DNA from: an uncultured Ignavibacteria bacterium
Lineage (GTDB): Bacteria; Zixibacteria; MSB-5A5; CAIYYT01
Direction of reading: 5' to 3'
NCBI GenBank assembly: GCA_964617645.1
Contig: CAZTYE010000013.1
Coordinates: 3,956 to 67,955 of the forward strand
DNA: 64,000 nt
The notes under the pieces were generated by a model that was not told the DNA's origin, made no database searches, and saw only the letters and a program-made list of their open reading frames with translations. A program made the translations under genes and the position numbers. Below are positions 30,138 to 52,250 of the stretch, piece by piece; the stretch's first letter is position 1, and the number at the start of each line of letters is the position of its first letter.

Positions 30138-30155
30138 TTGCGTAAAATTTCACAA
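30138..30155. promoter_or_regulatory. Rex-type operator (2 mismatches)
   Basis: TTGCGTAAAATTTCACAA versus consensus TTGTGAA-N4-TTCACAA. Confidence 0.5.
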
Positions 30156-30268: not shown

Positions 30269-30286
30269 TTGTGAAAAAAATCACAA
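30269..30286. promoter_or_regulatory. Rex-type operator (1 mismatch; also fits CRP-type TGTGA-N6-TCACA)
   Basis: TTGTGAAAAAAATCACAA between the promoter and the start codon. Confidence 0.7.
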
Positions 30287-30319: not shown

Positions 30320-31228
30320 TTGCCGATGACGAATACTCGACGAGAATTGTTCAAATGGGCAGCCGTCGGCGCGGTAACCGCTGTTGCCGGGCGAGCCGAG
30401 GCCAAGGAAGAGGAATTCCCTCTCGATTGCGCGCAAACGTACGGCGTACTGGTTGATACGGTCGTCTGTATCGGCTGTCGCAAGTGCGAGTGGGCGTGCA
30501 ACAACGAGCACAAACTCTCGAATACCGATCTCAAGACATTTGAAGATCGCACGGTTTTCCGAAAGCATCGCCGGCCGACGGACCAGTCGTATACGGTGGT
30601 CAATGAGTTCCGCAATCCGGCCACTCAAAAGCCGTACACGATGAAGGTCCAGTGCATGCACTGCAACCACCCGGCCTGCGTGTCCGCCTGTATCGTCGGC
30701 GCCTTGACCAAGAGCAATTCCGGCTCGGTGGATTATGATGCCTGGAAATGTATCGGCTGCCGGTATTGCATGGTAGCCTGCCCGTTTCAAGTGCCGGCAT
30801 ACGAGTACAGCGAGGCATTCAAGCCGCGGGTGATGAAATGCACCTTCTGCGCCCACCGCTTGGCCGAAGGCAAAAAGCCGGCGTGTGTGGGCATCTGCCC
30901 CAATGAGGCGTTGACGTTCGGGACCCGGCAGGAATTAATCGAAATCGCCAAAGAGCGGATCAAGATCAAGCCGGATGTTTACTATGACCATGTCTACGGC
31001 GAAACGGAGGTCGGCGGCACCAGCTGGATGTACCTGGCGCCGGTCGAGTTCAAGCACACCGAGCTGCCGACTTTGGGCGAGAAGCCGATTCCCAAGCTAA
31101 CCGAGACGATTCAACACGGCATATTCAAGTCGTTCGTTCCGCCGCTGGCACTTTACGGCTTATTGGGGCTGGTCATGTACTCGCTGCGCGAGAAGGATGA
31201 GAAGGAGTCGCACAATGAGCACGCATGA
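30320..31228 (+). CDS. Tat-exported 4Fe-4S dicluster protein (HybA/HmcB-like)
   Basis: Twin-arginine TRRELFK; Cys clusters CIGCRKCEWAC, CMHCNHPACVSAC, CIGCRYCMVACP and KCTFC...PACVGICP; EVGGTSWMYL; C-terminal TM anchor. Confidence 0.9.
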   Translation: MPMTNTRRELFKWAAVGAVTAVAGRAEAKEEEFPLDCAQTYGVLVDTVVCIGCRKCEWACNNEHKLSNTDLKTFEDRTVFRKHRRPTDQSYTVVNEFRNPATQKPYTMKVQCMHCNHPACVSACIVGALTKSNSGSVDYDAWKCIGCRYCMVACPFQVPAYEYSEAFKPRVMKCTFCAHRLAEGKKPACVGICPNEALTFGTRQELIEIAKERIKIKPDVYYDHVYGETEVGGTSWMYLAPVEFKHTELPTLGEKPIPKLTETIQHGIFKSFVPPLALYGLLGLVMYSLREKDEKESHNEHA

Positions 31229-38746: not shown

Positions 38747-38892
38747 AAACGACCACGATATCGACCTTTTCGATAGATTTTAATGTAGACCTTACTGGTC
38801 GATTCTGCATTTTGTAACCCACTGTCGGGCTGTCAGATAGTTTTCTCAAGATAGTAGACATTAACTTTCTTCAGGGGAATCGAAAATATCCC

Positions 38893-38928
38893 TTGACAAG
38901 CAGACTAATCTTGTTACCTTTTTCACAA
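38893..38928 (+). promoter_or_regulatory. Sigma70 promoter with extended -10 overlapped by a Rex-type operator
   Basis: TTGACA (38893-38898), 16-nt spacer with TG, TACCTT; operator TTGTTACCTTTTTCACAA at 38911-38928. Confidence 0.7.
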
Positions 38929-38969
38929 TCTTAGACGCGCCGCTTAGAGCTATGGCGTTGTGAGGCAAT

Positions 38970-39494
38970 ATGAAACGGATAATGACCGTACTTGTGATAG
39001 GGGCAATCTTCTGGGCGGCTACCGAATCCTTCGCCGGCGAAATTTCCAAAGACAGCACTTTTAGATCCGACACACTGACGGCGCCGCTTCCGGGCTGGAA
39101 AGTCGGAATCGACTCGACCAATATCAAGGATACAACCTCGTTTTTTGTTATCGAGACCCGACACAAGGTTTTCGGGAATTTCCGGCAGGTCGACACGGTC
39201 AGGTTTGGAAGGCAATTCGAGTTGGGTGAAGGCGAAGAAGTGGCGGTGGTGATGGCCTTCAATCCGCACTTGGCGATTTCGACGAAGGGCACGGCGATTG
39301 CGTTTTCGGACACGCTCTGGAATCCGGCGGCGCGAGTGCGCGTTCTCGACAAGAGCGGAAAGGTCATCCAAGAAGGCTGGGCGTTTCACTACACCGACGC
39401 GCCGCACTACCCGCGCAACCACCTGTTTGGATTTCGATTGCTGGCCTACAAAGTAGACTCACAGTTTATCATTCCCCCGGTTGAGAAGAAGTAG
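38970..39494 (+). CDS. Secreted hypothetical protein, possibly ResB-subdomain/DUF2155-like
   Basis: Signal peptide; FNP...NPAARVRV...EGWAF segment recalls a periplasmic region of ResB-type proteins (by memory, not aligned); first gene after the promoter. Confidence 0.55.
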   Translation: MKRIMTVLVIGAIFWAATESFAGEISKDSTFRSDTLTAPLPGWKVGIDSTNIKDTTSFFVIETRHKVFGNFRQVDTVRFGRQFELGEGEEVAVVMAFNPHLAISTKGTAIAFSDTLWNPAARVRVLDKSGKVIQEGWAFHYTDAPHYPRNHLFGFRLLAYKVDSQFIIPPVEKK

Positions 39495-39509
39495 TTATCG
39501 GAGGCCTTC

Positions 39510-42500
39510 GTGCGACACGGACGATGCTTTGGGATCATTGCACACATCATTTTGGGGGTCGGCGCTTTTCTGGCATTTTCATCGTCCGCTCAGGCGGTCA
39601 AGACTTGCTACGATTGCCACCAGAATCTTAAAGCGGCCTTCGAAGCAAAAAAGGTCGTTCACAAGCCGGTAAAGGACAACGACTGCGAGTCGTGTCACAA
39701 ACGTCATGGGTTCGCCAATACTCTAATTCTCGTCGACAATAGTTCGGAACTGTGTTTCACATGCCATGCGGACTTGAAAGAGAAATTCGCGGTTGGGACG
39801 AAGCACGCGCCGATGGAAGTCGGCAAATGCTGGGATTGCCACGAACCGCACGCCGCCGACAAGAAGGGGCTGCTTCGCAATTACGAAGGCGTGATCGACG
39901 ATCCCGGCTCCTGCCTGGCGTGCCACGGCAAGGAACTGGAATCGGCGCTTGACGGAACAGTTCCCCATCCGCCGTTTACGAAACTGGATTGCGCGGCCTG
40001 TCATGATCCACATAACAGCGAGCACGCGGGATTGCTCAAGAAGGACGTCAGTGCGCTTTGCGCCGATTGCCACGATCCGAAGGACAAGAAGACGCTGGCG
40101 GCACATGAAGGCAAAGCGATCGCCGGCTTGGAGTGCGCCGAATGTCACAGCGGCCATTCGACGAACAGCGCGGGGCTGATGTCAGGAAATTCGCATGCGC
40201 CTTTTTCCGAAGGACAATGCGATGTTTGTCATGCGCCGGTGACCGATCCGGCGGCGATTCAGTTCACCGATGGCAAGAAACCGGGAGAACTTTGCGGCGA
40301 ATGCCACAGCGAACAGGTCGACGCAACGGCGTTGGCGATTCCGCATGCCGCGGTGGAGAAGGTCAACTGCGATGCCTGCCACCAGCCGCATTCATCGCGG
40401 CACGGCAAGCTACTGAAGGAAAATCAGGCCAACTTGTGCGGCGAATGCCATGACGATCTTCTGACCGGCGACAAGATGGTTGCGCACGCGCCGGCGATTC
40501 TCGGAGACTGCTCCGGCTGTCATGAAGTTCACGGCTCGAATAAGGAGCATCTGCTCGCCGCAACGGATTCGAGTCTTTGCCTGGGATGCCATGGCGAATT
40601 CGCAGTAAAGCGGGATTCCGCCGAAGTCGTGCATCCCGCGATCGCCGACTGCAATGGTTGTCACGCTCCGCACGAGGGCCACACACAGGCGATCTTGCGC
40701 ACTTCACCGGAAGACGCCTGCCGCAAATGCCATGAACCGTCGGGCGCGGATCGCGCGGCAGAGTCGGTCCACCCGCCGTATCTCAGATCGGATTGCAGCG
40801 CTTGTCATAATTCCCACTTCGGCGACGAGGCGCATCTCGTTAAGGCCGGTGGGAACAAACTTTGCGTCAATTGCCATCCGGAAATCGGGAATCGAACAAC
40901 ATTGGCGGTTCAGCACGCGCCGGCGCAGGAAGATTGCCAAACCTGCCACAGGCCCCACACCGCCGGAAGTGATTTTCTCTTGGCAGCGCCCGAGGGTGAG
41001 TTGTGCGGCCAGTGCCACGACCGGGCCGATTTTAATGGCAACAAGACTTTCGTGCATACGCCGGTACTGAAGGGCGATTGCAGCGGTTGCCACAATCCGC
41101 ACGGCTCGATGAAGGAACATCTGGTCGCCGGTCGTGCGGTGCGGATGTATGTCAACGGGATTCCGATCAGTAAAACACCGGCCCTGGGTGACAAGATCGC
41201 CGACCTTTGCTTCACCTGCCACGATGACCTGAAAGAGAAATTCCGCCAAGGCGTACCGCATACGCCGGTCGAAAGCGGCGATTGCCAGGTATGCCATGAT
41301 CCGCACGGCGGCGATGTCTACGGCATGCTAAAGGACGAGCCGGCCAAGGTTTGCGGGACATGCCATACGATCGACGCGGATTTGGCGACGAAACATGAAA
41401 ACTACGATCTGACGGCCGCGAACTGCCTTGATTGTCACAATCCGCACACGGCTCCGGAAAAGGGACTGATGCGGGCGAACTTGCATCCGCCGTTCGCCGA
41501 AAAGTCTTGTGACGGCTGCCATGAGCGCGGTGCGGACGGCAAGGTTGTCATGGCGGGACCGGAAGCCGAGGTTTGCGGCACTTGTCACGAGGATTTGCTG
41601 GGCCTCGCGAGCAAGAAGTCGCAGCATGGGCCGTTTGCCGCCGGCGAATGCACGGCCTGCCATAGTCCTCATGCGGGCGACGACAAGAAGTTTCTGCTTC
41701 GCGCCGGTAATGATCTGTGCACTAACTGCCACTCCGACATTCATGAACTGGTGAATCAGCCGGTGCAGCACCGCCCGTTTGCGGATGGCGCCTGCGTTGA
41801 CTGCCACGGACCGCATGCGACGGACAATCCGGTATTGACGGTCAAGGCGAAGGAAGGATTCTGCACGAGTTGTCACGAAGACATCAAGAAGGAGCTGGCT
41901 TCCGGCGAAGTCCACGCGCCGACAAAGACCGGCGATTGCACCCAATGCCATCTGCCCCACGCCGGCGCCGCACCAATGCTTCTGGCGAAAGACAAACAAG
42001 CACTCTGCTCGGGATGTCATGATTACACTTCGGTGGCCGTGAAAACAGCGCATGGCGGGTTCGACATTTCCGGCGCCGACTGCCAGAATTGCCATGTCGC
42101 GCACGCCACGAAGCGCGGTGTCAAGGGGCTGCTGCTGCCGAACGCGCACGAGCCGTTCCGCAGCGGCACGTGCGACCAGTGCCACGCCGGGCAAGCGCCT
42201 CTACCGCTGGTTGCCGAGACCAAGGAGTTGTGTCTGACCTGCCACGACGACTTTGCAAAGCAACTTGCGCAGGCCGTGGTGCATGCGCCGATCCTGAGCG
42301 GTGATTGCACCGGTTGTCACGGCCCGCACGTCGGCTTCGGTAAGTCACTTCAGGTTCGCGAAGGATTCAAGGCCTGTGTCACCTGTCACGACTCGCGTGA
42401 GTTTTCCGGCAGCGTCAAACATCCGGTGGCGTTCGAAGATTGCGGCAACTGTCATGATCCGCATGCGGCGCCGAATAAGGGACTTCTAAATACGACGGAT

Positions 42501-42704
42501 ATACAAGGCTTGTGTCTCGGCTGTCATGAAGACGCCAAGAAGTCGCATTTTCATCCGATGGGCGATAGTGTCATTGATCCGCGCACCAAGACGCCGGTGA
42601 ACTGCGTCAGTTGCCACTCGGCACACTCATCCGACTGGCCATCGATGCTGGTTGCCGATAAAAACCGCAAGTTGTGTGTACTGTGCCACGACGTCAGCCA
42701 CTAA
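39510..42704 (+). CDS. Very large periplasmic multiheme cytochrome c, 42 CxxCH
   Basis: Sec signal ending AQA; 42 CxxCH counted, mostly as H.P...CxxCH.PH....LL......CxxCH paired repeats. Confidence 0.93.
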   Translation: MRHGRCFGIIAHIILGVGAFLAFSSSAQAVKTCYDCHQNLKAAFEAKKVVHKPVKDNDCESCHKRHGFANTLILVDNSSELCFTCHADLKEKFAVGTKHAPMEVGKCWDCHEPHAADKKGLLRNYEGVIDDPGSCLACHGKELESALDGTVPHPPFTKLDCAACHDPHNSEHAGLLKKDVSALCADCHDPKDKKTLAAHEGKAIAGLECAECHSGHSTNSAGLMSGNSHAPFSEGQCDVCHAPVTDPAAIQFTDGKKPGELCGECHSEQVDATALAIPHAAVEKVNCDACHQPHSSRHGKLLKENQANLCGECHDDLLTGDKMVAHAPAILGDCSGCHEVHGSNKEHLLAATDSSLCLGCHGEFAVKRDSAEVVHPAIADCNGCHAPHEGHTQAILRTSPEDACRKCHEPSGADRAAESVHPPYLRSDCSACHNSHFGDEAHLVKAGGNKLCVNCHPEIGNRTTLAVQHAPAQEDCQTCHRPHTAGSDFLLAAPEGELCGQCHDRADFNGNKTFVHTPVLKGDCSGCHNPHGSMKEHLVAGRAVRMYVNGIPISKTPALGDKIADLCFTCHDDLKEKFRQGVPHTPVESGDCQVCHDPHGGDVYGMLKDEPAKVCGTCHTIDADLATKHENYDLTAANCLDCHNPHTAPEKGLMRANLHPPFAEKSCDGCHERGADGKVVMAGPEAEVCGTCHEDLLGLASKKSQHGPFAAGECTACHSPHAGDDKKFLLRAGNDLCTNCHSDIHELVNQPVQHRPFADGACVDCHGPHATDNPVLTVKAKEGFCTSCHEDIKKELASGEVHAPTKTGDCTQCHLPHAGAAPMLLAKDKQALCSGCHDYTSVAVKTAHGGFDISGADCQNCHVAHATKRGVKGLLLPNAHEPFRSGTCDQCHAGQAPLPLVAETKELCLTCHDDFAKQLAQAVVHAPILSGDCTGCHGPHVGFGKSLQVREGFKACVTCHDSREFSGSVKHPVAFEDCGNCHDPHAAPNKGLLNTTDIQGLCLGCHEDAKKSHFHPMGDSVIDPRTKTPVNCVSCHSAHSSDWPSMLVADKNRKLCVLCHDVSH

Positions 42705-42723
42705 ATGGACTGAGGGAACTCTG

Positions 42724-43611
42724 ATGATCAGGCACCGACTCTATGCTCCGATTCTTGCCGCGACGATCTTGTTCACTGCCGCATATGCGACGGCGTTGCA
42801 GCTCTACAAGAGCATCAAAGTACTCGACGGTGAGCGGCAATTGGTCAAGCCGACGCAGGTGGTTACGTCGCCCTCCGGCGCCCGCTATGCGGTTGTCGAC
42901 CAGTTTGCCAACCGAATTTATGTCTTCGACATTCCCGATCAACTGGTCTGGGAAGTCGGCACGCTGACGCCGCTGGTGCTGCCGACGTCGGCGTGTTTTG
43001 ACGGCGAAGACGCATTATTGTTCGCGGTGCAAAATCGCAATCAGGTTTATCGAACCCGCAGCGACGAACCGGACAAGTACGACAGCGTAACGACAATCAA
43101 GGACGGCGGAATCCGCAATATCGACGCCATCCGCCGGACGCCGGAGAACCAATATATCGTGCTTGATCGCAAGAATGGACGAGTCGCGCAATTCGATCAC
43201 AAGTGGCGATTCGTGCGCGTAGTCGCCGATCAGGGCCAGGGTCGAGGCAAGCTGTGGGCGCCGGTTGAAGTGGCGGTTTTGCTCGGCGGTGGTTTGGCAA
43301 TTTCGGATGCCGCGAATATGCCGCTGCAGATATTCTCCAGCCAGGGGAAATTCCTCAACTCTGCCGGCTGGAATAATCCGACGCAAGACCGTCAATGGAA
43401 GGGCGGCGCTGTCACGGTGGGATTGGACGAAACGATTTGGGTTGCCGATATGAGTGCGCGCCGGTGGCGGCGTTTCGACCGCGCCGGAGTGGAAGTCAGC
43501 AGTGAGAGCTTCACCCTGCCGCCGATGCATCCGCTGAGCGCGGCATTCACCGCCGATGGCCGGTTAATCGTGGTGGATGAGTTAGGGTCGCTGCACATCT
43601 TCGAACCATAA
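42724..43611 (+). CDS. NHL-repeat beta-propeller protein
   Basis: Signal peptide; repeats PTQVVTSPSG..YAVVD, GKLWAPVEVAV..GG.L.ISD, VTVGLDETIWVAD. Confidence 0.75.
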   Translation: MIRHRLYAPILAATILFTAAYATALQLYKSIKVLDGERQLVKPTQVVTSPSGARYAVVDQFANRIYVFDIPDQLVWEVGTLTPLVLPTSACFDGEDALLFAVQNRNQVYRTRSDEPDKYDSVTTIKDGGIRNIDAIRRTPENQYIVLDRKNGRVAQFDHKWRFVRVVADQGQGRGKLWAPVEVAVLLGGGLAISDAANMPLQIFSSQGKFLNSAGWNNPTQDRQWKGGAVTVGLDETIWVADMSARRWRRFDRAGVEVSSESFTLPPMHPLSAAFTADGRLIVVDELGSLHIFEP

Positions 43612-43625
43612 TTACTGAGGATCTT

Positions 43626-44579
43626 GTGAAACGCATCGCGTCGTTGCTGATCGGAATCACTCTCTGGCCGCTCGTTAACGTGGTCGCGGGCGAATGGCAC
43701 ACCGAGGGCAACCTGCGCTGCGCGGATTGCCATCTATCGCATGCTTCGGGCGAAGAGATCGGCGCCTATGAGGGGCCCTACCTGATCCTGCTCAAGAAAG
43801 ACTCGATCAACGAATTGTGCCTGTCTTGCCACGACGGCAGCGATCTGGCCGCGCCAGATGTGCTGACGCCGGTTGAGATGTACGCCGCGACGAGCGCCGG
43901 CGAGAGCACTGCGGGGCATCTGCAACTTCCCAGCTATGATCACGCTGGCGGGCACAATCTGGGTCTGATCGCGCCGACGCCGCTGCAGTCCGCCGGCAGC
44001 GCCATAGAACTCAGTTGCATCAGTTGTCACGCGGCGCACGGCAATGCCAATTACCGCAATCTGTCGGAAGATCCGGCACGCATCGGCAGCAATCTTTCCG
44101 TTGTTGACGGCATTCAAGTGTTCACCGATCAGAAGCCGTCGCGGCCGCCAAATTCGGTGTCAACGATTGCGGCTTATCAGCGCGACAATGTCGGTTACGT
44201 TTCCGGCCTCGACGAGTGGTGCACATCCTGTCACAATCAGTTGGAGAATAACGCACCGGCTTCAAGTCCTGCGCATTTTGCGGGTCACCCGTCCGGCGTG
44301 GCGCTCAATCAGTTTGTCAGCGAGTATCATGCGGATCCGCAACATTGGATCGGCGGAAGTGGCGAGGGATTTACGCTCGATGGGATTAGCCGGTTGCCGA
44401 TCCTGTCGCCGAGCGCGACGAGTTTCATCGCCGCCCGCACGCCGCAGACATCCGATCGCGTGAGTTGTATCAGTTGCCACCGCGGACACGGCGGCGATCG
44501 GCGAAAGAATCTCCGGTGGCCGGCGGTTGAAGGCGGCGCCACCGCGATGGCCGGATGCCAACAGTGCCATAACAAGTAG
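43626..44579 (+). CDS. OmcS-like hexaheme cytochrome c (paralog 1)
   Basis: 6 CxxCH; mature WHTEGNLRCADCHLSH; GGHNL, YRNL, GLDEWCTSCH and VSCISCHRGH in OmcS order. Confidence 0.75.
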   Translation: MKRIASLLIGITLWPLVNVVAGEWHTEGNLRCADCHLSHASGEEIGAYEGPYLILLKKDSINELCLSCHDGSDLAAPDVLTPVEMYAATSAGESTAGHLQLPSYDHAGGHNLGLIAPTPLQSAGSAIELSCISCHAAHGNANYRNLSEDPARIGSNLSVVDGIQVFTDQKPSRPPNSVSTIAAYQRDNVGYVSGLDEWCTSCHNQLENNAPASSPAHFAGHPSGVALNQFVSEYHADPQHWIGGSGEGFTLDGISRLPILSPSATSFIAARTPQTSDRVSCISCHRGHGGDRRKNLRWPAVEGGATAMAGCQQCHNK

Positions 44580-44586
44580 TGAGCAG

Positions 44587-45681
44587 ATGATGAGTCAGCG
44601 CACAACAGGTGTGAGTTTAGGAGTAGCGTCGCTGTTAATCGCGGGGGCAGCGTTGCTGCTCGCCGATGGCGGCCGGTTCCGCAATTCACCACACGGCTCT
44701 GCCGAAAGCGGCGTGTGGCGAACCGGAGATTATCCTCGCGGAAGCTGCCTGCAATGTCATGGCGCGCACCAAGGAGGCACGCCGGAACCGTTCGGACTAT
44801 TCCAGCCCAATAGCAATGAACTCTGCCTCGGCGCCTCGATGGGCGGCTGCCATGCCGATCAACCGAGCGGTGCGACGGCGGGCTATCCGGCGCAAGAGAC
44901 GGACCGGATGCCGATCGGATCGAGCGACGCCGGTTATTTCGAGTTCAATTCCGGCGGCACACGGATTCCCGGAGTCAGTAATCATGTCCGCTGGCCGGGT
45001 CGTCAGGTTTGGAAGGATCTCGCGTATTCACCGCATAATACCGACCCCGATATGCCGCTTAAGGATTTCTTCGGCGACGGCGACTGCGGAAATTGCCACA
45101 ACATACACGGTGGCGCGGGATCGCACGATTTACTTGATACGACCTACAGCAGCATCGTAGGTTCGCAATTCGGCGCGTGGCCGGACAACTACGAATTGTG
45201 TTTCTCCTGCCACTCGCAATTCGGCCCGGTCGGGATGAACGAAAGCGGCAAACGCATTCGCGACTACTACGACCGCTCGATTAATCCGAGCAACCGCGCG
45301 GGCCATGGTATCGGCGACGGCGGCGGATACGTGCCGTCCGGCGCGCGGCTGTCGTGCTCGGATTGCCACAATCCGCATGGATCGCGTGGGAGTCAAGCAG
45401 GGGGTCCGAACGCGTTCTTGCTCAGCGATCAGCGCCCGGGCTGGCACGGACTCACCGATATTCGCAACGACAACGCTCAGGTTCGCCGATTTTGCTTCGG
45501 TTGCCATGTATCCTCCGATAACCAAGCGGGGGGAACTATCCATGGACTCAATCTGGAGCGGCTTCCCGACGAAGTCGCGGCGCATGAATTCATGGGCACG
45601 ACACATTGCTACGACTGTCACGGACGCGACTATTCGACGTCGAACGGCTTCAATGTTCATAACCCAGCGGAGGGTGAATAA
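44587..45681 (+). CDS. Multiheme cytochrome c, 6 CxxCH plus one CX7CH
   Basis: CLQCH, CLGASMGGCH, CGNCH, CFSCH, CSDCH, CFGCH, CYDCH; hydrophobic N-terminus. Confidence 0.85.
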   Translation: MMSQRTTGVSLGVASLLIAGAALLLADGGRFRNSPHGSAESGVWRTGDYPRGSCLQCHGAHQGGTPEPFGLFQPNSNELCLGASMGGCHADQPSGATAGYPAQETDRMPIGSSDAGYFEFNSGGTRIPGVSNHVRWPGRQVWKDLAYSPHNTDPDMPLKDFFGDGDCGNCHNIHGGAGSHDLLDTTYSSIVGSQFGAWPDNYELCFSCHSQFGPVGMNESGKRIRDYYDRSINPSNRAGHGIGDGGGYVPSGARLSCSDCHNPHGSRGSQAGGPNAFLLSDQRPGWHGLTDIRNDNAQVRRFCFGCHVSSDNQAGGTIHGLNLERLPDEVAAHEFMGTTHCYDCHGRDYSTSNGFNVHNPAEGE

Positions 45682-47381
45682 TGTTGCGGGTCGTATTGGT
45701 GCCGGCGCTTCTGACCATTCTGGCCTGCGACGTTGACGCCGATCGGCTGTACGGGAATCTCAATTTGCTGGGAGAGCACTCGCGACAAGCCGGGGCCGTT
45801 GCTTTCAGCGACAACTCCTCGCAGGCAACGCTCACGCTTAACTACGAAGACGCTCTTTTCGTAAAAAACCGAATGCGGCTCGGACTTCAGGTTTCGCGAC
45901 GCGACTATCCGAATTCGCCGCAGCGGGACCTGAGGCCGATTTTTACGCTCGACCTCAAGAGCTACGGTTATGCACTGAATCTGAGCTACTCCCCGTACCG
46001 GCGGCTGACGACAGACGCGATCGGCGCGAGCACGTACTATTTGTATTCGCGTGATTGGCGCTCCAACCTGGCCCTCAACTACGATCGCTACCCGCCCGTG
46101 AACATCACCTACAACCGGACGCGAAAATTCGACCGCCAGACCCAGCGCCGCTTCGATAGCTCCGGCGAGACGTTTTTGATCGACACCCGCCACGCGGTCG
46201 GTGGCGTTGCGGTGCGCGGGTCTTATGGCCGGGTAACGAGCGAGAATTTTCTGATCGGCGGCTCGAATTCGGTTTCGGAAAACGTCGCGGCGGCAGCGAC
46301 TCTAACCAAGAATTACGACGGCATCGGCTACCTGAACGCGCTCTATTCGTACTATGCCTCGGAGATCGACCGCCGGTCGTTGGCGGTGCGCAATCGCACG
46401 GAGTTTTCGGCGCACACGATCAACGCCCTGTTGTCTTCCGACCGGTTTTATGGACTGACCGCGACGACTACCTATTCCGGGCGCTGGGCGGAGTCACAAA
46501 CGAGCACAATTCGCGCCCAAAACGACAATCACAACGCTACGGCGCAGTTGTCGTTCCTGCCCCTATCGTATTTATCGTTCGATGTCGCGAAATCGTACCA
46601 AACCACCGAAGAAGGCGGCCCGCGGCAAACGGTAGAATTCGTCAGCATCTCCGGCTCCGCATCGCGTTATCTGCGGCAAGGCGTCGACACGCGGTTGGGC
46701 GCCACCCGGACGTTTTTCCAGAAATCAAACAAGTCGCTGGAGAGCGGCGAGGGCGGTTCGGGAGCTTATAATTACGACAACATCTATGCTTCAGTCGGAC
46801 TGACGCCGCTGAATTATGTCCGTACCTATTTCGACGTCTCGGTAGCGCACGATTCAAAGCCGATCTTGAAAACCCAGCGGTATCAGGTCTTTCGTTCTTT
46901 GAATGCGCAGCTTCAACTCAGCCGCCGCATCGAGAGCCGCATCGGCTTTACCGCGGTTTATCAGGGCGCGAACTTGAATTTTGACCAGAGTATCTCGCGA
47001 AACTACAACCTCGGGCTGACGTGGATTCCAACCGGCAATCTTAGCCTGAACGCAAACTACATTCGGACGGAAAGCGCGACCGACATCGCGCTGAGCACCG
47101 ATTCGTGGAACGGCTACGCGTCGTACTCATTCCGGCGCGCTTTCACGCTATTCGTCAACGGCGTTTGGCAGGAACAAAAGACGTCGGCGATATCGCCGGC
47201 GCTGCTACCGTCGGAAGTCAATCGCACTTCGCGGCCGCGGTCGATCAATAGCCAGATTCTGATTTACCTGACGCCGTCAATTACACTCACCGGCGGATAC
47301 TTGTACTCCCTGGTTGAAGTGCTGGGCGGATCGTACACCTTGATCGAGTCCTATCAGTTATCCTTGAATTTTCGGATTTAG
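45681..47381 (+). CDS. Outer-membrane beta-barrel protein (porin of a porin-cytochrome or secretion system)
   Basis: Signal-like N-terminus; alternating amphipathic strands rich in Y/S/T/N; terminal strand SYQLSLNFRI; TAATG coupling to the upstream cytochrome. Confidence 0.7.
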   Translation: MLRVVLVPALLTILACDVDADRLYGNLNLLGEHSRQAGAVAFSDNSSQATLTLNYEDALFVKNRMRLGLQVSRRDYPNSPQRDLRPIFTLDLKSYGYALNLSYSPYRRLTTDAIGASTYYLYSRDWRSNLALNYDRYPPVNITYNRTRKFDRQTQRRFDSSGETFLIDTRHAVGGVAVRGSYGRVTSENFLIGGSNSVSENVAAAATLTKNYDGIGYLNALYSYYASEIDRRSLAVRNRTEFSAHTINALLSSDRFYGLTATTTYSGRWAESQTSTIRAQNDNHNATAQLSFLPLSYLSFDVAKSYQTTEEGGPRQTVEFVSISGSASRYLRQGVDTRLGATRTFFQKSNKSLESGEGGSGAYNYDNIYASVGLTPLNYVRTYFDVSVAHDSKPILKTQRYQVFRSLNAQLQLSRRIESRIGFTAVYQGANLNFDQSISRNYNLGLTWIPTGNLSLNANYIRTESATDIALSTDSWNGYASYSFRRAFTLFVNGVWQEQKTSAISPALLPSEVNRTSRPRSINSQILIYLTPSITLTGGYLYSLVEVLGGSYTLIESYQLSLNFRI

Positions 47382-47396
47382 CAACGGATAAGAGTT

Positions 47397-47981
47397 ATGA
47401 AATCACTGACCCGAATCACACTGCTTTTGACTTTGCTGCCGCTGCTGTCTTGCGGCAGTTATCGGGCGTACACCAATCCCGAAGCCGACTTTGGGTTCTA
47501 CGAGCGCGTCGGTGTCATCCCCTTCGCCAATCTTACCAACGACCGCAATGCGTCGGAGAAGGTGACTTCGGCGTTCGTGATCGAGCTCCTCATCGGGGAC
47601 GCGCTGGAAGTGGCGCCGATGGGCGACGTCTACAAGGCGGCGCGCGCGGTACTTAAAGACGAAAAGACGAATCTGCCCGATCAGTTGACGGGCGAGGAAG
47701 CGCGCGCCCTCGGCGAAGCGGCGCAAGTCCAGGCGCTCTTTGTCGGCGCGGTCCGCGATTACGGCATGGTGCGCTCGGGACAAGAGGAGTTTCCGCTGGT
47801 GTCGGTCAGCGTGCGCTTGATCGACTGCGGCACCGGCAAGGTGGTTTGGACGCACGAAGTGACGCGCAAGGGTGGGCCGAAATTCCCGATCTTCTCGTTC
47901 GGCGAGACGCATACGCTCGGTGACATGACCGCCAAGGTTTGCCGCGAGGTGGCACGAGATTTCCTCGGTAAGGTGCGATAG
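47397..47981 (+). CDS. Lipoprotein, DUF799/GNA1162 (CsgG/PelC/TolB_N-like fold)
   Basis: Lipobox LLS-C; RVGVIPFANLT...ALGEAAQVQALFVGAVRDYG...VSVSVRLID..TGKVVW. Confidence 0.7.
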   Translation: MKSLTRITLLLTLLPLLSCGSYRAYTNPEADFGFYERVGVIPFANLTNDRNASEKVTSAFVIELLIGDALEVAPMGDVYKAARAVLKDEKTNLPDQLTGEEARALGEAAQVQALFVGAVRDYGMVRSGQEEFPLVSVSVRLIDCGTGKVVWTHEVTRKGGPKFPIFSFGETHTLGDMTAKVCREVARDFLGKVR

Positions 47982-47983
47982 CC

Positions 47984-48568
47984 ATGCGTTCGGCGGCGAT
48001 TTTTGTTGTGGTAGCGGTTGTGGCGCTCGCGATGTTGGCCTGCAGCCCGGGAATGGTCAGCAAGCGCTCGGCACGAATCGAGCTGCCGCAGAAGCCCCGC
48101 GTGGCGGTGCTTCCCTTCGAGAATTATTCCGGTGAGGAAGGCGCCGCGACGCGCATTACGGATTACTTCGTTACGCTGATGACGGCCAGCCCGGACTTTG
48201 AACTGATCGAATTCGGCAGTTCATACGAGGCGATGCGCCGACTGCGGATCCGCTCATCGAATTCGATGTCGAGCGAGCAAATCGACAGCCTGGCGGCGAT
48301 TCTGGGCGCCGACGTGCTGTTTTCAGGCACGGTGGTAGAATACAATACTGTCGACAACTCGTATCTCGGCAAAGTCCCGCGCGTGGCGTTCAACGCACGT
48401 GCCCTGGCGACGCGCGAACGGCGCACAGTTTGGTCGGCGGCGGTTAGCGGCCGCGGCGACAAAGGCGAGTTTCTTTTCGGAATTGGCGTAATTCGATCCG
48501 CGGAGAAGCTGTCGGAAAAGCTGGTTGAAGCGGCGGTAAGAGAGTTCGCGGATGAAATTCGCAATTGA
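47984..48568 (+). CDS. Lipoprotein, second DUF799/CsgG/PelC-like paralog
   Basis: Lipobox MLA-C; RVAVLPFENYS...LGADVLFSGTVVEY...VAFNARAL....RTVWSA. Confidence 0.7.
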   Translation: MRSAAIFVVVAVVALAMLACSPGMVSKRSARIELPQKPRVAVLPFENYSGEEGAATRITDYFVTLMTASPDFELIEFGSSYEAMRRLRIRSSNSMSSEQIDSLAAILGADVLFSGTVVEYNTVDNSYLGKVPRVAFNARALATRERRTVWSAAVSGRGDKGEFLFGIGVIRSAEKLSEKLVEAAVREFADEIRN

Positions 48569-49532
48569 TCGCCGGCTGCTACTGCTCGCTATTCTGGTGG
48601 GAGTTACTCTCAGCAGTGTCGCGGTCCTTGCCGAACACCCGGCGCAGCGGATTTCGATAGCCGCGATCGGCGATCAAGACGCCACCGGCAAACAATTGCG
48701 CTCGCCGGTGTCGATTCACTTTGATCGCTACGGCAACGAGGTGTTTGTCGTCGACCCGGGCGGAAAAAAGGTGGTGATCTTCGACCCCGACCTCAACCCC
48801 CGCTTCGAGTTCCAGCATCGGGTGCCGTCGCTTCAGGGCGGACAACTCGAGCCGGGAGAACCCAAGCGTCTCGTGACCAATCGGCACGGCGAGATTCTCC
48901 TGATCGATAATGTCGCGGATTTCATCGACATCCTTGACTTCCGCGGCAGACCCGTTGATCGCATTTATCCCAATCGGCTCCTGGGCGACACGACGCTCAA
49001 AATTCGGGCAGACCTGATCGCTACGGATGAACGGGACAATGTTTATGTATCGATCGACGGAGACCTTCAGGCGGTGCTGGTGCTTGACGGCAATTTGCGG
49101 CTCAAGCGCCGCTTCGGGCAGAAAGGCGACCGGCCGGAAGACTTCAATACAGTAGTTGGGCTTTACGCCAGCGAGGGCAAAATCTACATCGCCGATGTAT
49201 ATGGCGAACCGGCAATTAAGGTCTACGACACCCTCGGTACTTACCTGTTTGGGTTTGCCCGCCATGAGATCGACCCCGGTGATCTTTCGATGGCGCAAGG
49301 CATTGCGGTGCACCGCGACACAGCCGGAATCCAGACGATTTGGGTCACCGATGCTCTGCGGCAAGTCATAAAAGTCTACTCAGACAGTGGAGTTTACATC
49401 GCGACCGTCGGTGGCTTTGGCGAAAAGCCAGGAGAGTTTATGTATCCTTCCGGAATCGCGGTGTCGGAGACCGGCTCGTTCTATATTGTGGAGCGTGGAT
49501 CGGCCCGAATTCAGCGTTTCGACTACCGCTAA
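48552..49532 (+). CDS. NHL-repeat beta-propeller protein
   Basis: LRSPVSIHFD..GNEVFVVD; FGQKGDRPEDF; GGFGEKPGEFMYPSGIAVSETGSFYIVERGSARIQRF. Confidence 0.85.
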   Translation: MKFAIDRRLLLLAILVGVTLSSVAVLAEHPAQRISIAAIGDQDATGKQLRSPVSIHFDRYGNEVFVVDPGGKKVVIFDPDLNPRFEFQHRVPSLQGGQLEPGEPKRLVTNRHGEILLIDNVADFIDILDFRGRPVDRIYPNRLLGDTTLKIRADLIATDERDNVYVSIDGDLQAVLVLDGNLRLKRRFGQKGDRPEDFNTVVGLYASEGKIYIADVYGEPAIKVYDTLGTYLFGFARHEIDPGDLSMAQGIAVHRDTAGIQTIWVTDALRQVIKVYSDSGVYIATVGGFGEKPGEFMYPSGIAVSETGSFYIVERGSARIQRFDYR

Positions 49533-49604
49533 GTTAATGCCACTAACTTACTAAGCATTGCACGAAAATTGACCGCGAAAATCGATTTGGTACGAAGAAT
49601 TTCC

Positions 49605-49640
49605 TTGACAAACAATACGAGATTGCTATCTTTTTCACAA
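49605..49640 (+). promoter_or_regulatory. Sigma70 promoter with extended -10 overlapped by a Rex-type operator
   Basis: TTGACA (49605-49610), 16-nt spacer with TG, TATCTT; operator TTGCTATCTTTTTCACAA at 49623-49640; aligns without gaps to 38891-38930. Confidence 0.7.
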
Positions 49641-49717
49641 ACTTTTGAAGCGCTGAAAGCCTTCATATAAGGAACGAGCCGAATGCACCTGCGAAGAGCC
49701 AAATCGACAAACAGGAT

Positions 49718-49735
49718 TTGTGAAGTTTTTCACAA
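49718..49735. promoter_or_regulatory. Perfect Rex-type operator
   Basis: TTGTGAA-GTTT-TTCACAA. Confidence 0.8.
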
Positions 49736-49952
49736 TCACGACAGTCTTTGGGGACAATCGGCCGAGTTAAAGATCGCCAGAACTCAGCCTCTATTTACAT
49801 CTGATCAAAGTCAAATTAGCTCGAATGAACAATTGATGAAAGGAGTGATGCCAGATCACCGACGCGGATCGCGAGAATCTGCGATCACAAAAGACGGGCT
49901 GAACGTTCACAAGTACTTTCACCTTAATTCAACCACTAAGGTAGGTTCTACA

Positions 49953-51032
49953 ATGAAGAAGCTCACCTTGCTTGCTTTTGCCATGGTGTTCGCGCTTGTT
50001 GTCGCGGCGATGGCGGGCGACTATCATTCCGGCGCGAATCTGAATTGCGCGGAATGTCATGTGATGCACTATAGCCAGACCCATGGCTACAACAGCAATG
50101 GCGGCGGGATCACCGTCGACCTGGGCAACGCAGGCCCGTATCATTACTTGCTGCGCAACGAAATCAACGATCTCTGCCTGACTTGCCACGATGGCCAAAC
50201 ATTCGCGCCGGACGTTTTTGAAGTCGGTACTGGCGCTCCGGCAAACGGCCGTCTCGCCGGCGCTCTGAATCGTGATAACGTTTCGCCGTACTTTGATGCT
50301 ACCGGCCACACCCTCGGCTCGACCGACGATGCCCCGGGTGGCACTTGGGACAATCCGGACGGCCTTAACTGCACGAACTGCCACACCCAGCACGGCCGCG
50401 GCGGCTCGTGGGGTGGCGTGTCGTACAGCCTTTATCGCAATGCGAACATCTTCATCAACGGCACCCCGACAACCCCGCTGATGACCTATGCCATCGGGAC
50501 CAATGATCTCACTCGCGACATCTTTGAGCGTTCGGCGACTTACGGCGGCACGCACTATGACTTGCTGAACGTCGACTACAATGAGCCGGATCCGACGCAG
50601 TCTGGATACGGTCGTTTCTGCGGCCAGTGCCACACCAATTTCCATGGAACCGTTGGTTCCGCGGAGATCGGCGGCACGGGTACGCCGGCCAGCGAATTCC
50701 TGCGTCACCCCACCGCCGGCGCCAATATTGGAGCGCTTGGTGGCGGGCACTCAAGCCTGACCCGCAAGTATGACGACATGCTCTATCGTCTCAAGGTCAT
50801 GAGCCCGACCGGTAACTGGGGAACGTGGGGCGTTGCGTTCGGCGGAACCTCGACGGTCTCCAATGCTCCGACCGATCATACACCGTCTTGCATGACCTGC
50901 CACAAGGCGCACGGCACGACCCGCGCCTTTGGTCTGATCTGGGCCACGGGCACGACTCCGTACGGTGAAAACGGCGACGGCACCCGCTACGATCAGCAGT
51001 GCGGCCAGTGTCACGCGCAGGTCGCCTTCTAA
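49953..51032 (+). CDS. OmcS-like hexaheme cytochrome c, likely the major subunit (paralog 2)
   Basis: ATG at 49953 after AAGGTAGGT; signal peptide; YHSGANLNCAECHVMH; 6 CxxCH; APGG...LNCTNCH..HG, FCGQCHTNFH, RHP and SCMTCHKAHG; own promoter and terminator. Confidence 0.8.
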   Translation: MKKLTLLAFAMVFALVVAAMAGDYHSGANLNCAECHVMHYSQTHGYNSNGGGITVDLGNAGPYHYLLRNEINDLCLTCHDGQTFAPDVFEVGTGAPANGRLAGALNRDNVSPYFDATGHTLGSTDDAPGGTWDNPDGLNCTNCHTQHGRGGSWGGVSYSLYRNANIFINGTPTTPLMTYAIGTNDLTRDIFERSATYGGTHYDLLNVDYNEPDPTQSGYGRFCGQCHTNFHGTVGSAEIGGTGTPASEFLRHPTAGANIGALGGGHSSLTRKYDDMLYRLKVMSPTGNWGTWGVAFGGTSTVSNAPTDHTPSCMTCHKAHGTTRAFGLIWATGTTPYGENGDGTRYDQQCGQCHAQVAF

Positions 51033-51067
51033 TTCAGAAGTCACGCCTGTTCATAGTCTGCAATTGA

Positions 51068-51091
51068 GAAGAGGAGCTTCGGCTCCTCTTC
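51068..51091 (+). terminator. Strong hairpin (terminator or RNA stabiliser) after the major OmcS-like gene
   Basis: GAAGAGGAGC-TTCG-GCTCCTCTTC, 10-bp stem with UUCG loop; the U-tract is weak. Confidence 0.7.
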
Positions 51092-51122
51092 CGTTCTTGC
51101 TAATGCTAATCGGGAGCATTCA

Positions 51123-52250
51123 ATGAAGCCGAATTCTTCAATTACTACTTTCCTCATGTTATTTGCTCTTACCTGCTGCTCAAGCTCATTCGCCTTCGAT
51201 CCCAATGATGCGGCGGCAAACCTTCAGTACATTCATCCCGGAGCGACGATCAAGACGCCCGCGGCGGCATTCAAAGCCACCGGTCAAATGGACGTTCCGA
51301 CATTTCATAGCGGTACGACTCTGTATTGCTCGCAGTGCCATGTCATGCACGCCAGTCAACAACATGCGCATGAAGGCGTGGGCGCAATCGATCCCTTCGG
51401 CCCCTACCCACGCACGTTCGACCCATCGCCGAAGCTGCTCAAAGCTCCGGATCCTGTTGCGCTCTGTTTGACCTGCCATGACAATGTGCCCGGCGTCCCG
51501 GATGTCGTCGGAGCAGACGTCAACGGCCTCGTTGAGCGTTCAGCGGGCTTGTTCGAGCTACCCGGCGAGCCAAACCCCAGAGGACACAAGCTCGACTACG
51601 GTCTTGATACGGATCCGGGGTTTGGTCTTTGCATGAGATGCCATTTTGGAGGAACGTTTGAGGATGCGGCAGTCTCCTGTATCGACTGTCACAATCCACA
51701 CGGAAACGGTCGAGCGAGAAACCTTCAATGGGCGTCATACCCCGGCGGCGAGCCGCAGTTTGGATTGTACAACTCCGTCAATAGCGGTTTGGCCAAGTAC
51801 GAACGCGGCAACGTGGCGTATGGTACAGACAACTCAGATTTGGCACGCGAAGTCACGAACATGTGCAATGACTGCCACCATGTGTTCACCGGTCAGTATT
51901 ACAACGACCCGGACGCGGATGGTATTCACAACCTGCACCCGAGTTACGACTCGGAACGGTCAAATCCGAATAATATAGCGCAGGGCAACTCGGAAGGCAC
52001 GACCAGCAGCCAGCATTGGATCGACGGCACGGGAACCGGCTATCAGGCTACGCCGCGGGTCAACTTCGTCAACTACCCGGCTACCGACTTCGCATCGGCG
52101 TCGACCGTGAATGCCGGCAGCAACGGAGTATTCTGCCTATCGTGTCACAAGGCTCACGGCGGGACAAGCTCGTTTGCTTTGCTATGGGATCCTGTTGGCA
52201 GTTTTAATGGAGAAGGATGCGATCAGTGCCATCTCAAGATGGGCGAATGA
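51123..52250 (+). CDS. OmcS-like cytochrome c with N-terminal extension and a seventh CxxCH (paralog 3)
   Basis: Signal peptide, ~35-aa extension, then FHSGTTLYCSQCHVMH; CSQCH, CLTCH, CMRCH, CIDCH, CNDCH, CLSCH, CDQCH. Confidence 0.75.
   Translation: MKPNSSITTFLMLFALTCCSSSFAFDPNDAAANLQYIHPGATIKTPAAAFKATGQMDVPTFHSGTTLYCSQCHVMHASQQHAHEGVGAIDPFGPYPRTFDPSPKLLKAPDPVALCLTCHDNVPGVPDVVGADVNGLVERSAGLFELPGEPNPRGHKLDYGLDTDPGFGLCMRCHFGGTFEDAAVSCIDCHNPHGNGRARNLQWASYPGGEPQFGLYNSVNSGLAKYERGNVAYGTDNSDLAREVTNMCNDCHHVFTGQYYNDPDADGIHNLHPSYDSERSNPNNIAQGNSEGTTSSQHWIDGTGTGYQATPRVNFVNYPATDFASASTVNAGSNGVFCLSCHKAHGGTSSFALLWDPVGSFNGEGCDQCHLKMGE

Follow-up and report, generated by a model that had tools for sequence, protein, structure and literature searches.

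Probable Rex operators fused to the extended -10 elements of two promoters in a multihaem cytochrome cluster of an uncultured Zixibacteria bacterium

The 64,000-nucleotide (nt) stretch of DNA analysed here (the window, to whose forward strand coordinates refer unless otherwise given) stems from the 3.45-Mb assembly of an uncultured Zixibacteria bacterium, hereafter G000, and contains a cluster of multihaem cytochrome genes (38970-52250). Two promoters, referred to as P1 and P2 and situated 10.7 kb apart, precede respectively a nine-gene transcription unit and a gene for a six-haem cytochrome. The subject of this work is the composite architecture of these promoters, in each of which the extended -10 element appears to double as the left half of an operator for the repressor Rex. 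The Rex box is taken throughout as the consensus TTGTGAAnnnnTTCACAA, an 18-bp inverted repeat with 14 specified positions. The features concerned are as follows.

38882-38889, forward: A/T-rich tract GAAAATAT directly upstream of the P1 -35 hexamer, a putative UP-like element
38893-38898, forward: P1 -35 hexamer TTGACA, invariant across nine orthologous promoters
38911-38928, forward: probable Rex box of P1, TTGTTACCTTTTTCACAA, matching at 12 of 14 positions with a perfect right half, at about -16 to +2
38912-38920, forward: P1 extended -10, TG-t-TACCTT, after a 16-nt spacer, matching the genome's own -10 profile TAT(A/C)TT
38927, forward: predicted P1 transcription start, an A inside the right half-site, placed by standard -10-to-start spacing
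38970-49532, forward: P1 transcription unit, with nine closely spaced genes in the same orientation (from open reading frames and Pfam)
49605-49610, forward: P2 -35 hexamer TTGACA, within CCTTGACAA (from the sequence and a promoter scan)
49623-49640, forward: probable Rex box of P2, TTGCTATCTTTTTCACAA, matching at 11 of 14 positions with a perfect right half
49624-49632, forward: P2 extended -10, TG-c-TATCTT, after a 16-nt spacer (10 of 12 consensus matches, with TG)
49718-49735, forward: leader Rex box TTGTGAAGTTTTTCACAA, perfect at 14 of 14 positions, about +80 to +97 from the predicted P2 start
49953-51032, forward: gene for a six-haem cytochrome assigned to the OmcS family, with a signal peptide and the start MKKL (open reading frame, six CxxCH motifs, profile search)
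51068-51091, forward: terminator-like hairpin downstream of the cytochrome gene

The P1 unit encodes, in order, a 174-residue protein, a 1064-residue multihaem cytochrome in which the haem motifs number about 40, a first NHL propeller, a pair of multihaem cytochromes, a 566-residue protein, two 194-residue proteins and a second NHL protein, and this order is conserved in G029, G041, G042, L015, L022, L023 and L024. Pfam gave no matches for the 566-residue protein or the two 194-residue proteins, genome and metagenome collections queried with the former yielded no loci, and a homologue search with the 174-residue protein found one relative only. The cytochrome behind P2 had no match in a single-sequence phmmer search; the best PDB match of a profile of 30 homologues is Geobacter OmcS (6ef8; E = 9e-7), and the N-terminal YHSG...CxxCHVMH of the cytochrome aligns with the (F/Y)HSG...CxxCHxMH of OmcS. 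An AlphaFold model, with a mean predicted local distance difference test score (pLDDT) of 50, was too poor for fold comparison. Membership of the OmcS family is thus supported, and the gene is a putative cytochrome-filament gene. An earlier, sequence-only reading of this DNA had spoken of an assembly operon and a major subunit gene; these are functional labels, for which the remote profile match to OmcS provides the only support. A paralogue of the cytochrome lies downstream, after the hairpin, and homologues of the cytochrome bear Zixibacteria names. The cluster is absent from 12 other species of the same genus (G001-G012) and was found in other families of the class, together with bins labelled GN15, Ignavibacteria and Calditrichaeota, a patchy distribution that is consistent with loss or lateral transfer.

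The 40-mers at P1 (38891-38930) and P2 (49603-49642) are identical at 29 of 40 positions in gapless register, with flanking DNA that is essentially unrelated on either side, and their identity is restricted to the functional elements, the spacer sequences being different. The claim of the sequence-only reading that two promoters share a gapless 40-bp layout was therefore borne out, and each of the common elements that it listed, namely TTGACA, a 16-nt spacer, TGn plus TAyCTT and an identical TTTTTCACAA, is present in both promoters. The TG, which stands one base upstream of the -10 hexamer, occupies 38912-38913 in P1 and 49624-49625 in P2, followed by the hexamers TACCTT (38915-38920) and TATCTT (49627-49632) and by TTTTTCACAA at 38919-38928 and 49631-49640. 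Both sites thus have the makeup of a sigma-70-type extended -10 promoter (TTGACA, 16-nt spacer, TGn, TAnnnT), and P2 was the top sigma-70-like site within 36-54 kb in a consensus scan. An A-rich stretch is found at the place matching the P1 A/T tract in the orthologous promoters (consensus line 'aaa.a'), and CTTGACAA is present in every P2 orthologue examined. The predicted leader of P1 is about 42 nt long, with GAGG (38962-38965) preceding the ATG at 38970, and that of P2 extends about 314 nt to the cytochrome start. Taken together, P1 (38893-38928) and P2 (49605-49640) are predicted to be strong housekeeping-sigma promoters, each with an UP-like A/T tract.

The shared layout was compared with chance expectation using an 18-position pattern, TTGACA-N16-TANNTTTTTCACAA, with at most one mismatch allowed. 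Within the window the pattern matches at P1 and P2 only, as against a mean of 0.00 matches in 100 dinucleotide-preserving shuffles, and a chance origin of the layout is excluded. In the whole genome TTGACA-N16-18-TA..TTTT occurs at seven sites, with the TCACAA continuation at P1 and P2 only. A -10 profile, derived from those TTGAC[AT] sites between genes that have a spacer of 16 nt and a hexamer starting with TA, reads T-A-T(0.64)-A/C(0.48/0.30)-T(0.73)-T(0.84), with a spacing of 16-17 nt; since the profile reads T-A-T-(A/C)-T-T, TAyCTT is a consensus rather than a weak -10 in this genome. Downstream of the hexamer (positions 6-13 of the profile) no base preference exists genome-wide, and the run of T plus CACAA at P1 and P2 is consequently something beyond promoter consensus. 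A Bacteroidetes-type -7 element (TAnnTTTG) was considered as the source of the T-run and rejected, as the promoters of the genome show no T preference past the hexamer.

The register between the Rex box and the promoter is the same at P1 and P2: the TG falls on box positions 2-3, the spacer base on position 4 and the -10 hexamer on positions 5-10, such that the left half-sites, TTGTTAC in P1 and TTGCTAT in P2, coincide exactly with TGn plus the -10, and positions 12-18 (TTCACAA) span the discriminator up to the predicted start, an A located 7 nt past the -10. The canonical box reads TG-n-GAAnnT, and one G-to-T change at position 5 gives a good extended -10. The idea that the left half-site serves as the extended -10 accordingly fits the sequence to the base, although the direction implied in calling it 'drifted' is not established. 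A matrix compiled from the other boxes of the genome has the consensus TTGTGAAAATTTTCACAA, with positions 7 and 12 preferring A and T; trained without the box being scored, it gives 20.1 bits for P1, a value that 29 positions between genes and 6 within coding sequence attain genome-wide, and 18.1 bits for P2 (36 intergenic and 8 coding positions). Both boxes are centred near -8 of the predicted promoters, which would be the position of a repressor and not of an activator. The other Rex boxes of the genome mostly begin 6-36 nt downstream of a -10, the -10 lying within the box solely at P1 and P2.

Some further sites touch on this arrangement. The -35 (TTGACT) upstream of one nuoA gene (contig C4, approximately 103990-104020) overlaps the start of a three-mismatch Rex box, TTGACTTTGTGAAAAATATCTCTA, which would constitute a third manner of box-promoter fusion within the genome. 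The P1 box of G042 recurs exactly as the 18-mer TAGTTATTTTTTTCACAA at C1:346802-346819, a site that was discarded as a third composite, having a weak -35 (GCGACA) and lying between two minus-strand genes with no downstream gene on the same strand. In the P2 leader, TTCACA from the right half of the perfect box, 18 nt and GACAAT (49729-49758) score as a second promoter-like site, which might be an internal promoter of the cytochrome gene, occluded by Rex; this layout, with TTCACA as the -35, has seven candidates in the genome including the leader box, which by rough estimate is not clearly above chance. An open reading frame from the ATG at 49683, in frame with the cytochrome, would cover the leader and the box within it, and this extension (49683-49952) is probably non-coding since the orthologues begin at the MKK signal peptide. 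A riboswitch or other structured leader upstream of the cytochrome was also rejected (best Rfam E = 0.87, which is noise; fold z-score -0.46).

That the operator at P1 and P2 is a Rex box is considered probable because the genome has a single Rex gene with an autoregulatory box, boxes are enriched genome-wide and the targets are of Rex type. Rex proteins combine a winged-helix N-terminus with a Rossmann NAD(H) domain; the one Rex gene (C8:77218-77871, with a PF06971 match at C8:77230) encodes a protein that scores 266 bits against an NCBIfam Rex cut-off of 126, matches solved Rex structures (PDB chains) at 1e-46 and has the motifs GVGNIG and QVRKDL. Its promoter reads TTGACC-18-TATGTT, followed directly by its own box, TCGTGAAAGTTTTCACAT. 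Rex was found in 11 of the 12 relatives that carry the cytochrome cluster, with a box just downstream of the rex -10 in eight of the 11 (two mismatches at most). Intergenic boxes with up to two mismatches number 33, as against approximately 0.9 expected (a more than 30-fold excess), and 39 have three mismatches where about 11 were expected. They stand upstream of two glutamate dehydrogenase genes (gdh), citrate synthase, acetyl-CoA acetyltransferase (thiolase), atpB (ATP synthase subunit a), sucC (succinyl-CoA ligase), an HdrB-like gene, hemA (glutamyl-tRNA reductase), both nuoA genes and multihaem cytochromes, and also of an HmcB/HybA-like operon inside the window, as given below. The genes behind the boxes thus resemble a typical Rex regulon.

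30138-30155, forward: Rex box with two mismatches, upstream of the HmcB/HybA-like operon
30269-30286, forward: Rex box with one mismatch, 34 nt upstream of the HmcB/HybA-like gene

Against HmcB the latter gene (at 30320) gives 2e-98, which is short of the curated cut-off of that model, and against HybA 2.7e-73.

The sequence-only reading had looked to orthologous promoters in related genomes as a check, and that comparison came out in its favour. The fused P1 layout is conserved in eight other genomes (L028, L029, L032, L041, L048, L051, L058 and L073), upstream of the gene pair for the 174- and 1064-residue proteins, with TTGACA and GTTA..TTTTTCACAA in unchanged register; the latter is invariant in all nine genomes, within DNA that is unalignable on both sides. 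The fused P2 layout is conserved in five (L031, L049, L071, L075/L023 and L021), in the interval that separates the last NHL gene from the OmcS-family gene and again amid unalignable DNA, and G000, L031 and L071 share the block TTGCTATCTTTTTCACAAA without a difference. Both composites occur on one contig in the candidate division GN15 FeB_12 and in the Zixibacteria metagenome-assembled genome (MAG) CAWDXE01, 10.9 kb apart, in agreement with the distance in G000. Since the layout is conserved at orthologous P1 and P2, co-regulation of the operon and the cytochrome gene by one factor is well supported, which upholds that much of the earlier proposal that the two switch on together. In the same nine genomes parts of the P1 spacer (38899-38914) are likewise constrained: a 'GAC' (TTGACAAGCAGAC / TTGACAACAGGAC) and an 'ATTT(T/A)G' upstream of the -10 are invariant or nearly so, which may mark the site of a second factor or a constraint on spacer shape.

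The composite recurs beyond this cluster. When 596 Gb of species genomes were searched for CTTGACAA-N15/16-TANNTTTTTCACAA, 52 stretches matched, as against about two expected under uniform base composition, an expectation that AT-rich genomes raise several-fold. Zixibacteria MAGs account for 19 of these and a candidate division GN15 MAG for two; bins with the label Ignavibacteria contribute ten, as do those of Syntrophaceae and other deltaproteobacteria taken together. Outside the cytochrome cluster the composite lies upstream of nuoA (seven genomes), a Zn-dependent dehydrogenase (four), rex itself (three), aprB, gdh, an HmcB-like gene and further multihaem cytochromes. The free box positions 1-4 in 51 distinct matches are T43, T38, G43 and T36, a preference that exceeds what the TGn motif needs and therefore identifies them as the left half of a Rex box. 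The fused promoter-operator is, on this comparison, a recurrent Rex design that is not peculiar to this locus. In three of the Syntrophaceae and deltaproteobacterial MAGs (L026, L039 and L055) TTGACAA-N15/16-TAnnTTTTTCACAA is the rex promoter, with a further TGTGAA a few bases on, which suggests tandem operators.

The Rex-operator explanation of P1 and P2 as a whole is regarded as likely, and the observations that weigh against it concern the quality and the constancy of the sites. The left half-sites match the consensus poorly, with G5 of the box missing in both and T4 in P2 also; some orthologous boxes (TAGTTAC, TAATTAT) reach only 7-17 bits, such that occupancy at some sites may depend on one half-site, and part of the matrix score stems from bases that the -10 requires anyway. 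At P2 the fused box is not universal: it is missing from G041, G042 and L022, L015 has no box of any kind, and G029 has a plain TTGACA-17-TATCAT at both promoters. The P2 orthologues of G041, G042, L022 and G029 instead have a canonical Rex box within the leader, in a location comparable to that of the G000 leader box and 140-215 nt ahead of the start codon, and G000 has both kinds of box. In a poorly resolved tree of the cytochrome orthologues the fused and leader states are interspersed, which points to repeated turnover of sites under constant Rex control; the fused state, being present in the most distant orthologues, may be ancestral. Of the claim of joint switching, then, the shared factor stands, but as some P2 orthologues lack the fused box and G000 has a fused plus a leader box, the thresholds of the operon and of the cytochrome gene need not be the same. 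The same genomes bear upon the proposal that no regulator is involved and that TTTTTCACAA belongs to the promoter as such, a T-rich discriminator with a CA start that is retained for promoter strength, its resemblance to the operator being a by-product. P1 and P2 are both close to consensus, five box positions are explained by the -10 plus TG, and the plain promoters of G029 would agree with such a view; however, the P2 orthologues that lack the fused element carry the canonical leader box, promoters of the TTGAC[AT]/TA-start type show no base preference after the hexamer, T prevails at box positions 1 and 4 (43 and 36 of 51 matches), which the promoter does not need, and the composite is found across phyla upstream of Rex-type targets, rex included. 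This proposal is accordingly thought improbable.

Slightly less improbable, though still unlikely, is binding of the sites by a single Crp/Fnr-family regulator (C13, approximately 86.6 kb) that represses or activates both promoters. The core TGTGA-N6-TCACA, which Rex boxes share, is indeed the CRP-type consensus, of which the genome holds 17 distinct perfect copies, and one HTH_Crp_2 protein is encoded on the contig that carries P1 and P2, its best NCBIfam matches, FtrB, CRP and Fnr, all falling below cut-off. Conversely, box positions 7 and 12 prefer A/T, giving the 7+4+7 form of a Rex site, the motif is on the rex promoter in G000 and most of the relatives, the genes behind the boxes are classical Rex targets, and the centre of the site near -8 differs from the -41.5 or -61.5 of a CRP/FNR-type activator site, with no conserved -10 some 20-25 nt downstream at P1, P2 or their orthologues. 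The recognition helix of the protein, SETLSR, is one which we take to be FNR-like (E--SR, TTGAT-type sites) rather than CRP-like. Class II activation by CRP/FNR, which was the first interpretation adopted, was dropped on account of the Rex gene, the autoregulatory box, the content of the regulon and the centre near -8. The gene in question (C13:86593-87267) lies about 29 kb past P2, outside the window; it encodes the only Crp/Fnr-family regulator, of 224 residues, and within the locus C13:85117-88323 (L019) is arranged head-to-tail with a gene for a 437-residue multihaem cytochrome bearing eight CxxCH motifs. Finally, the gapless identity of P1 and P2 might be attributed to one being a recent copy of the other, or to chance, which we judge very improbable indeed. 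P1 is identical to its orthologue in L048 at 33 of 38 positions as against 28 of 38 to P2, and the two are thus not recent copies of each other; in addition, the likeness is confined to functional elements, each promoter has orthologues of its own elsewhere and the shuffled sequences gave no matches.

Returning to the Rex-operator explanation, the cytochrome gene and the export operon are probably switched on together via Rex when the cell is over-reduced. Reduced nicotinamide adenine dinucleotide (NADH) releases Rex from DNA (PMC5355995, PMC8457756); Rex sites with one or two mismatches are bound better than those with three, and half-sites are contacted weakly (PMC5355995, PMC8457756). Footprints of Rex cover -39/-17 and -3/+25 (PMC5355995), and a TTGTTAA half-site variant of the operator exists (PMC8457756). 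At P1 and P2 a Rex dimer and RNA polymerase would compete for the same 18 bp, from about -16 to +2. At a low ratio of NADH to its oxidised form, NAD+, Rex would be bound and both units shut; a rise in NADH, e.g. when electron acceptors become scarce, would cause NADH-bound Rex to leave the DNA, whereupon the nine-gene cytochrome/porin-like operon and the OmcS-family gene would fire together, P2 being additionally guarded by the perfect box in its leader. The same rise would free the predicted co-members of the regulon, comprising haem synthesis (hemA), both nuoA genes (complex I), the HmcB-like quinone module, atpB and several central-carbon genes. The steps of this scheme, i.e. the start sites, the occupancy by Rex, the response to NADH and the direction of regulation, are deduced from sequence.

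A more far-reaching and decidedly tentative proposal is that Rex gates the OmcS-family cytochrome plus its envelope machinery across the Zixibacteria, with operator strength setting the order of derepression. The machinery operon, with a single weak fused box, would then open first as NADH rises, and the subunit gene, having a weak fused and a perfect leader box, would open only at higher NADH. As part of the same tentative proposal, the fused box would persist since a single substitution (TTGTGAAnnT to TTGTTAAnnT) separates a Rex box from an extended -10, which would make it easy for promoters to join the Rex regulon or drop out of it, as is suggested by the turnover of fused and leader boxes.

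LexA and TrpR are classical promoter-occluding repressors whose operators overlap the -10 and the start site, and the proposed steric competition with RNA polymerase at -10/+1 is common to these systems and to P1 and P2, although the protein family and the signal differ. Rex operators (ROP) are known at the cydA1, nuoA1, atpI and rex-hemA promoters of Streptomyces coelicolor and S. avermitilis (PMC5355995; Ravcheev et al. 2012 as cited in PMC8457756). The system described here has in common with that of Streptomyces the 18-bp TTGTGAAnnnnTTCACAA, a predicted NADH-released and autoregulated repressor, target classes that include nuo, atp, hemA and respiratory cytochromes, and operators that overlap core promoter elements. 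Unlike in Streptomyces, the extended -10 is formed by the left half-site, rewritten as TGnTAnnnT; the host is an uncultured member of the Zixibacteria within the Fibrobacteres-Chlorobi-Bacteroidetes (FCB) group, and the predicted targets comprise an OmcS-family gene and a porin/propeller/multihaem operon. The Clostridiaceae Rex motif, in the form TTGTTAAnnnnTTAACAA in which PMC8457756 quotes it from Ravcheev et al. (2012), likewise has T for G at box position 5, as do the TTGTTA of P1 and most of the composite matches; as quoted, the clostridial change is in both halves, reflecting the specificity of that Rex clade, whereas in G000 it is in the -10-bearing half only and the other boxes of the genome keep TTGTGAA. 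A single report places Rex-like motifs upstream of three extracellular multihaem cytochrome genes, in Calderihabitans maritimus, which provides a parallel in the predicted Rex control of extracellular electron-transfer cytochromes that are derepressed under reducing conditions; that organism is a Firmicute, however, with unrelated cytochromes, and neither fusion of operator and -10 nor conservation across genomes was described (PMC7306483).

The type of control proposed for P1 and P2 is therefore conserved and ordinary, a Rex operator on a core promoter, in a compact variant layout and with a new class of target. The promoter-operator design is very compact and recurs in several phyla; it could serve as an NADH-responsive expression switch, and is a possible handle by which to induce such clusters in enrichment cultures or heterologous hosts. 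For the organism itself, the predicted regulon would place the cytochrome apparatus under the same control as haem synthesis, complex I, ATP synthase and an Hmc-like module coupled to quinones.

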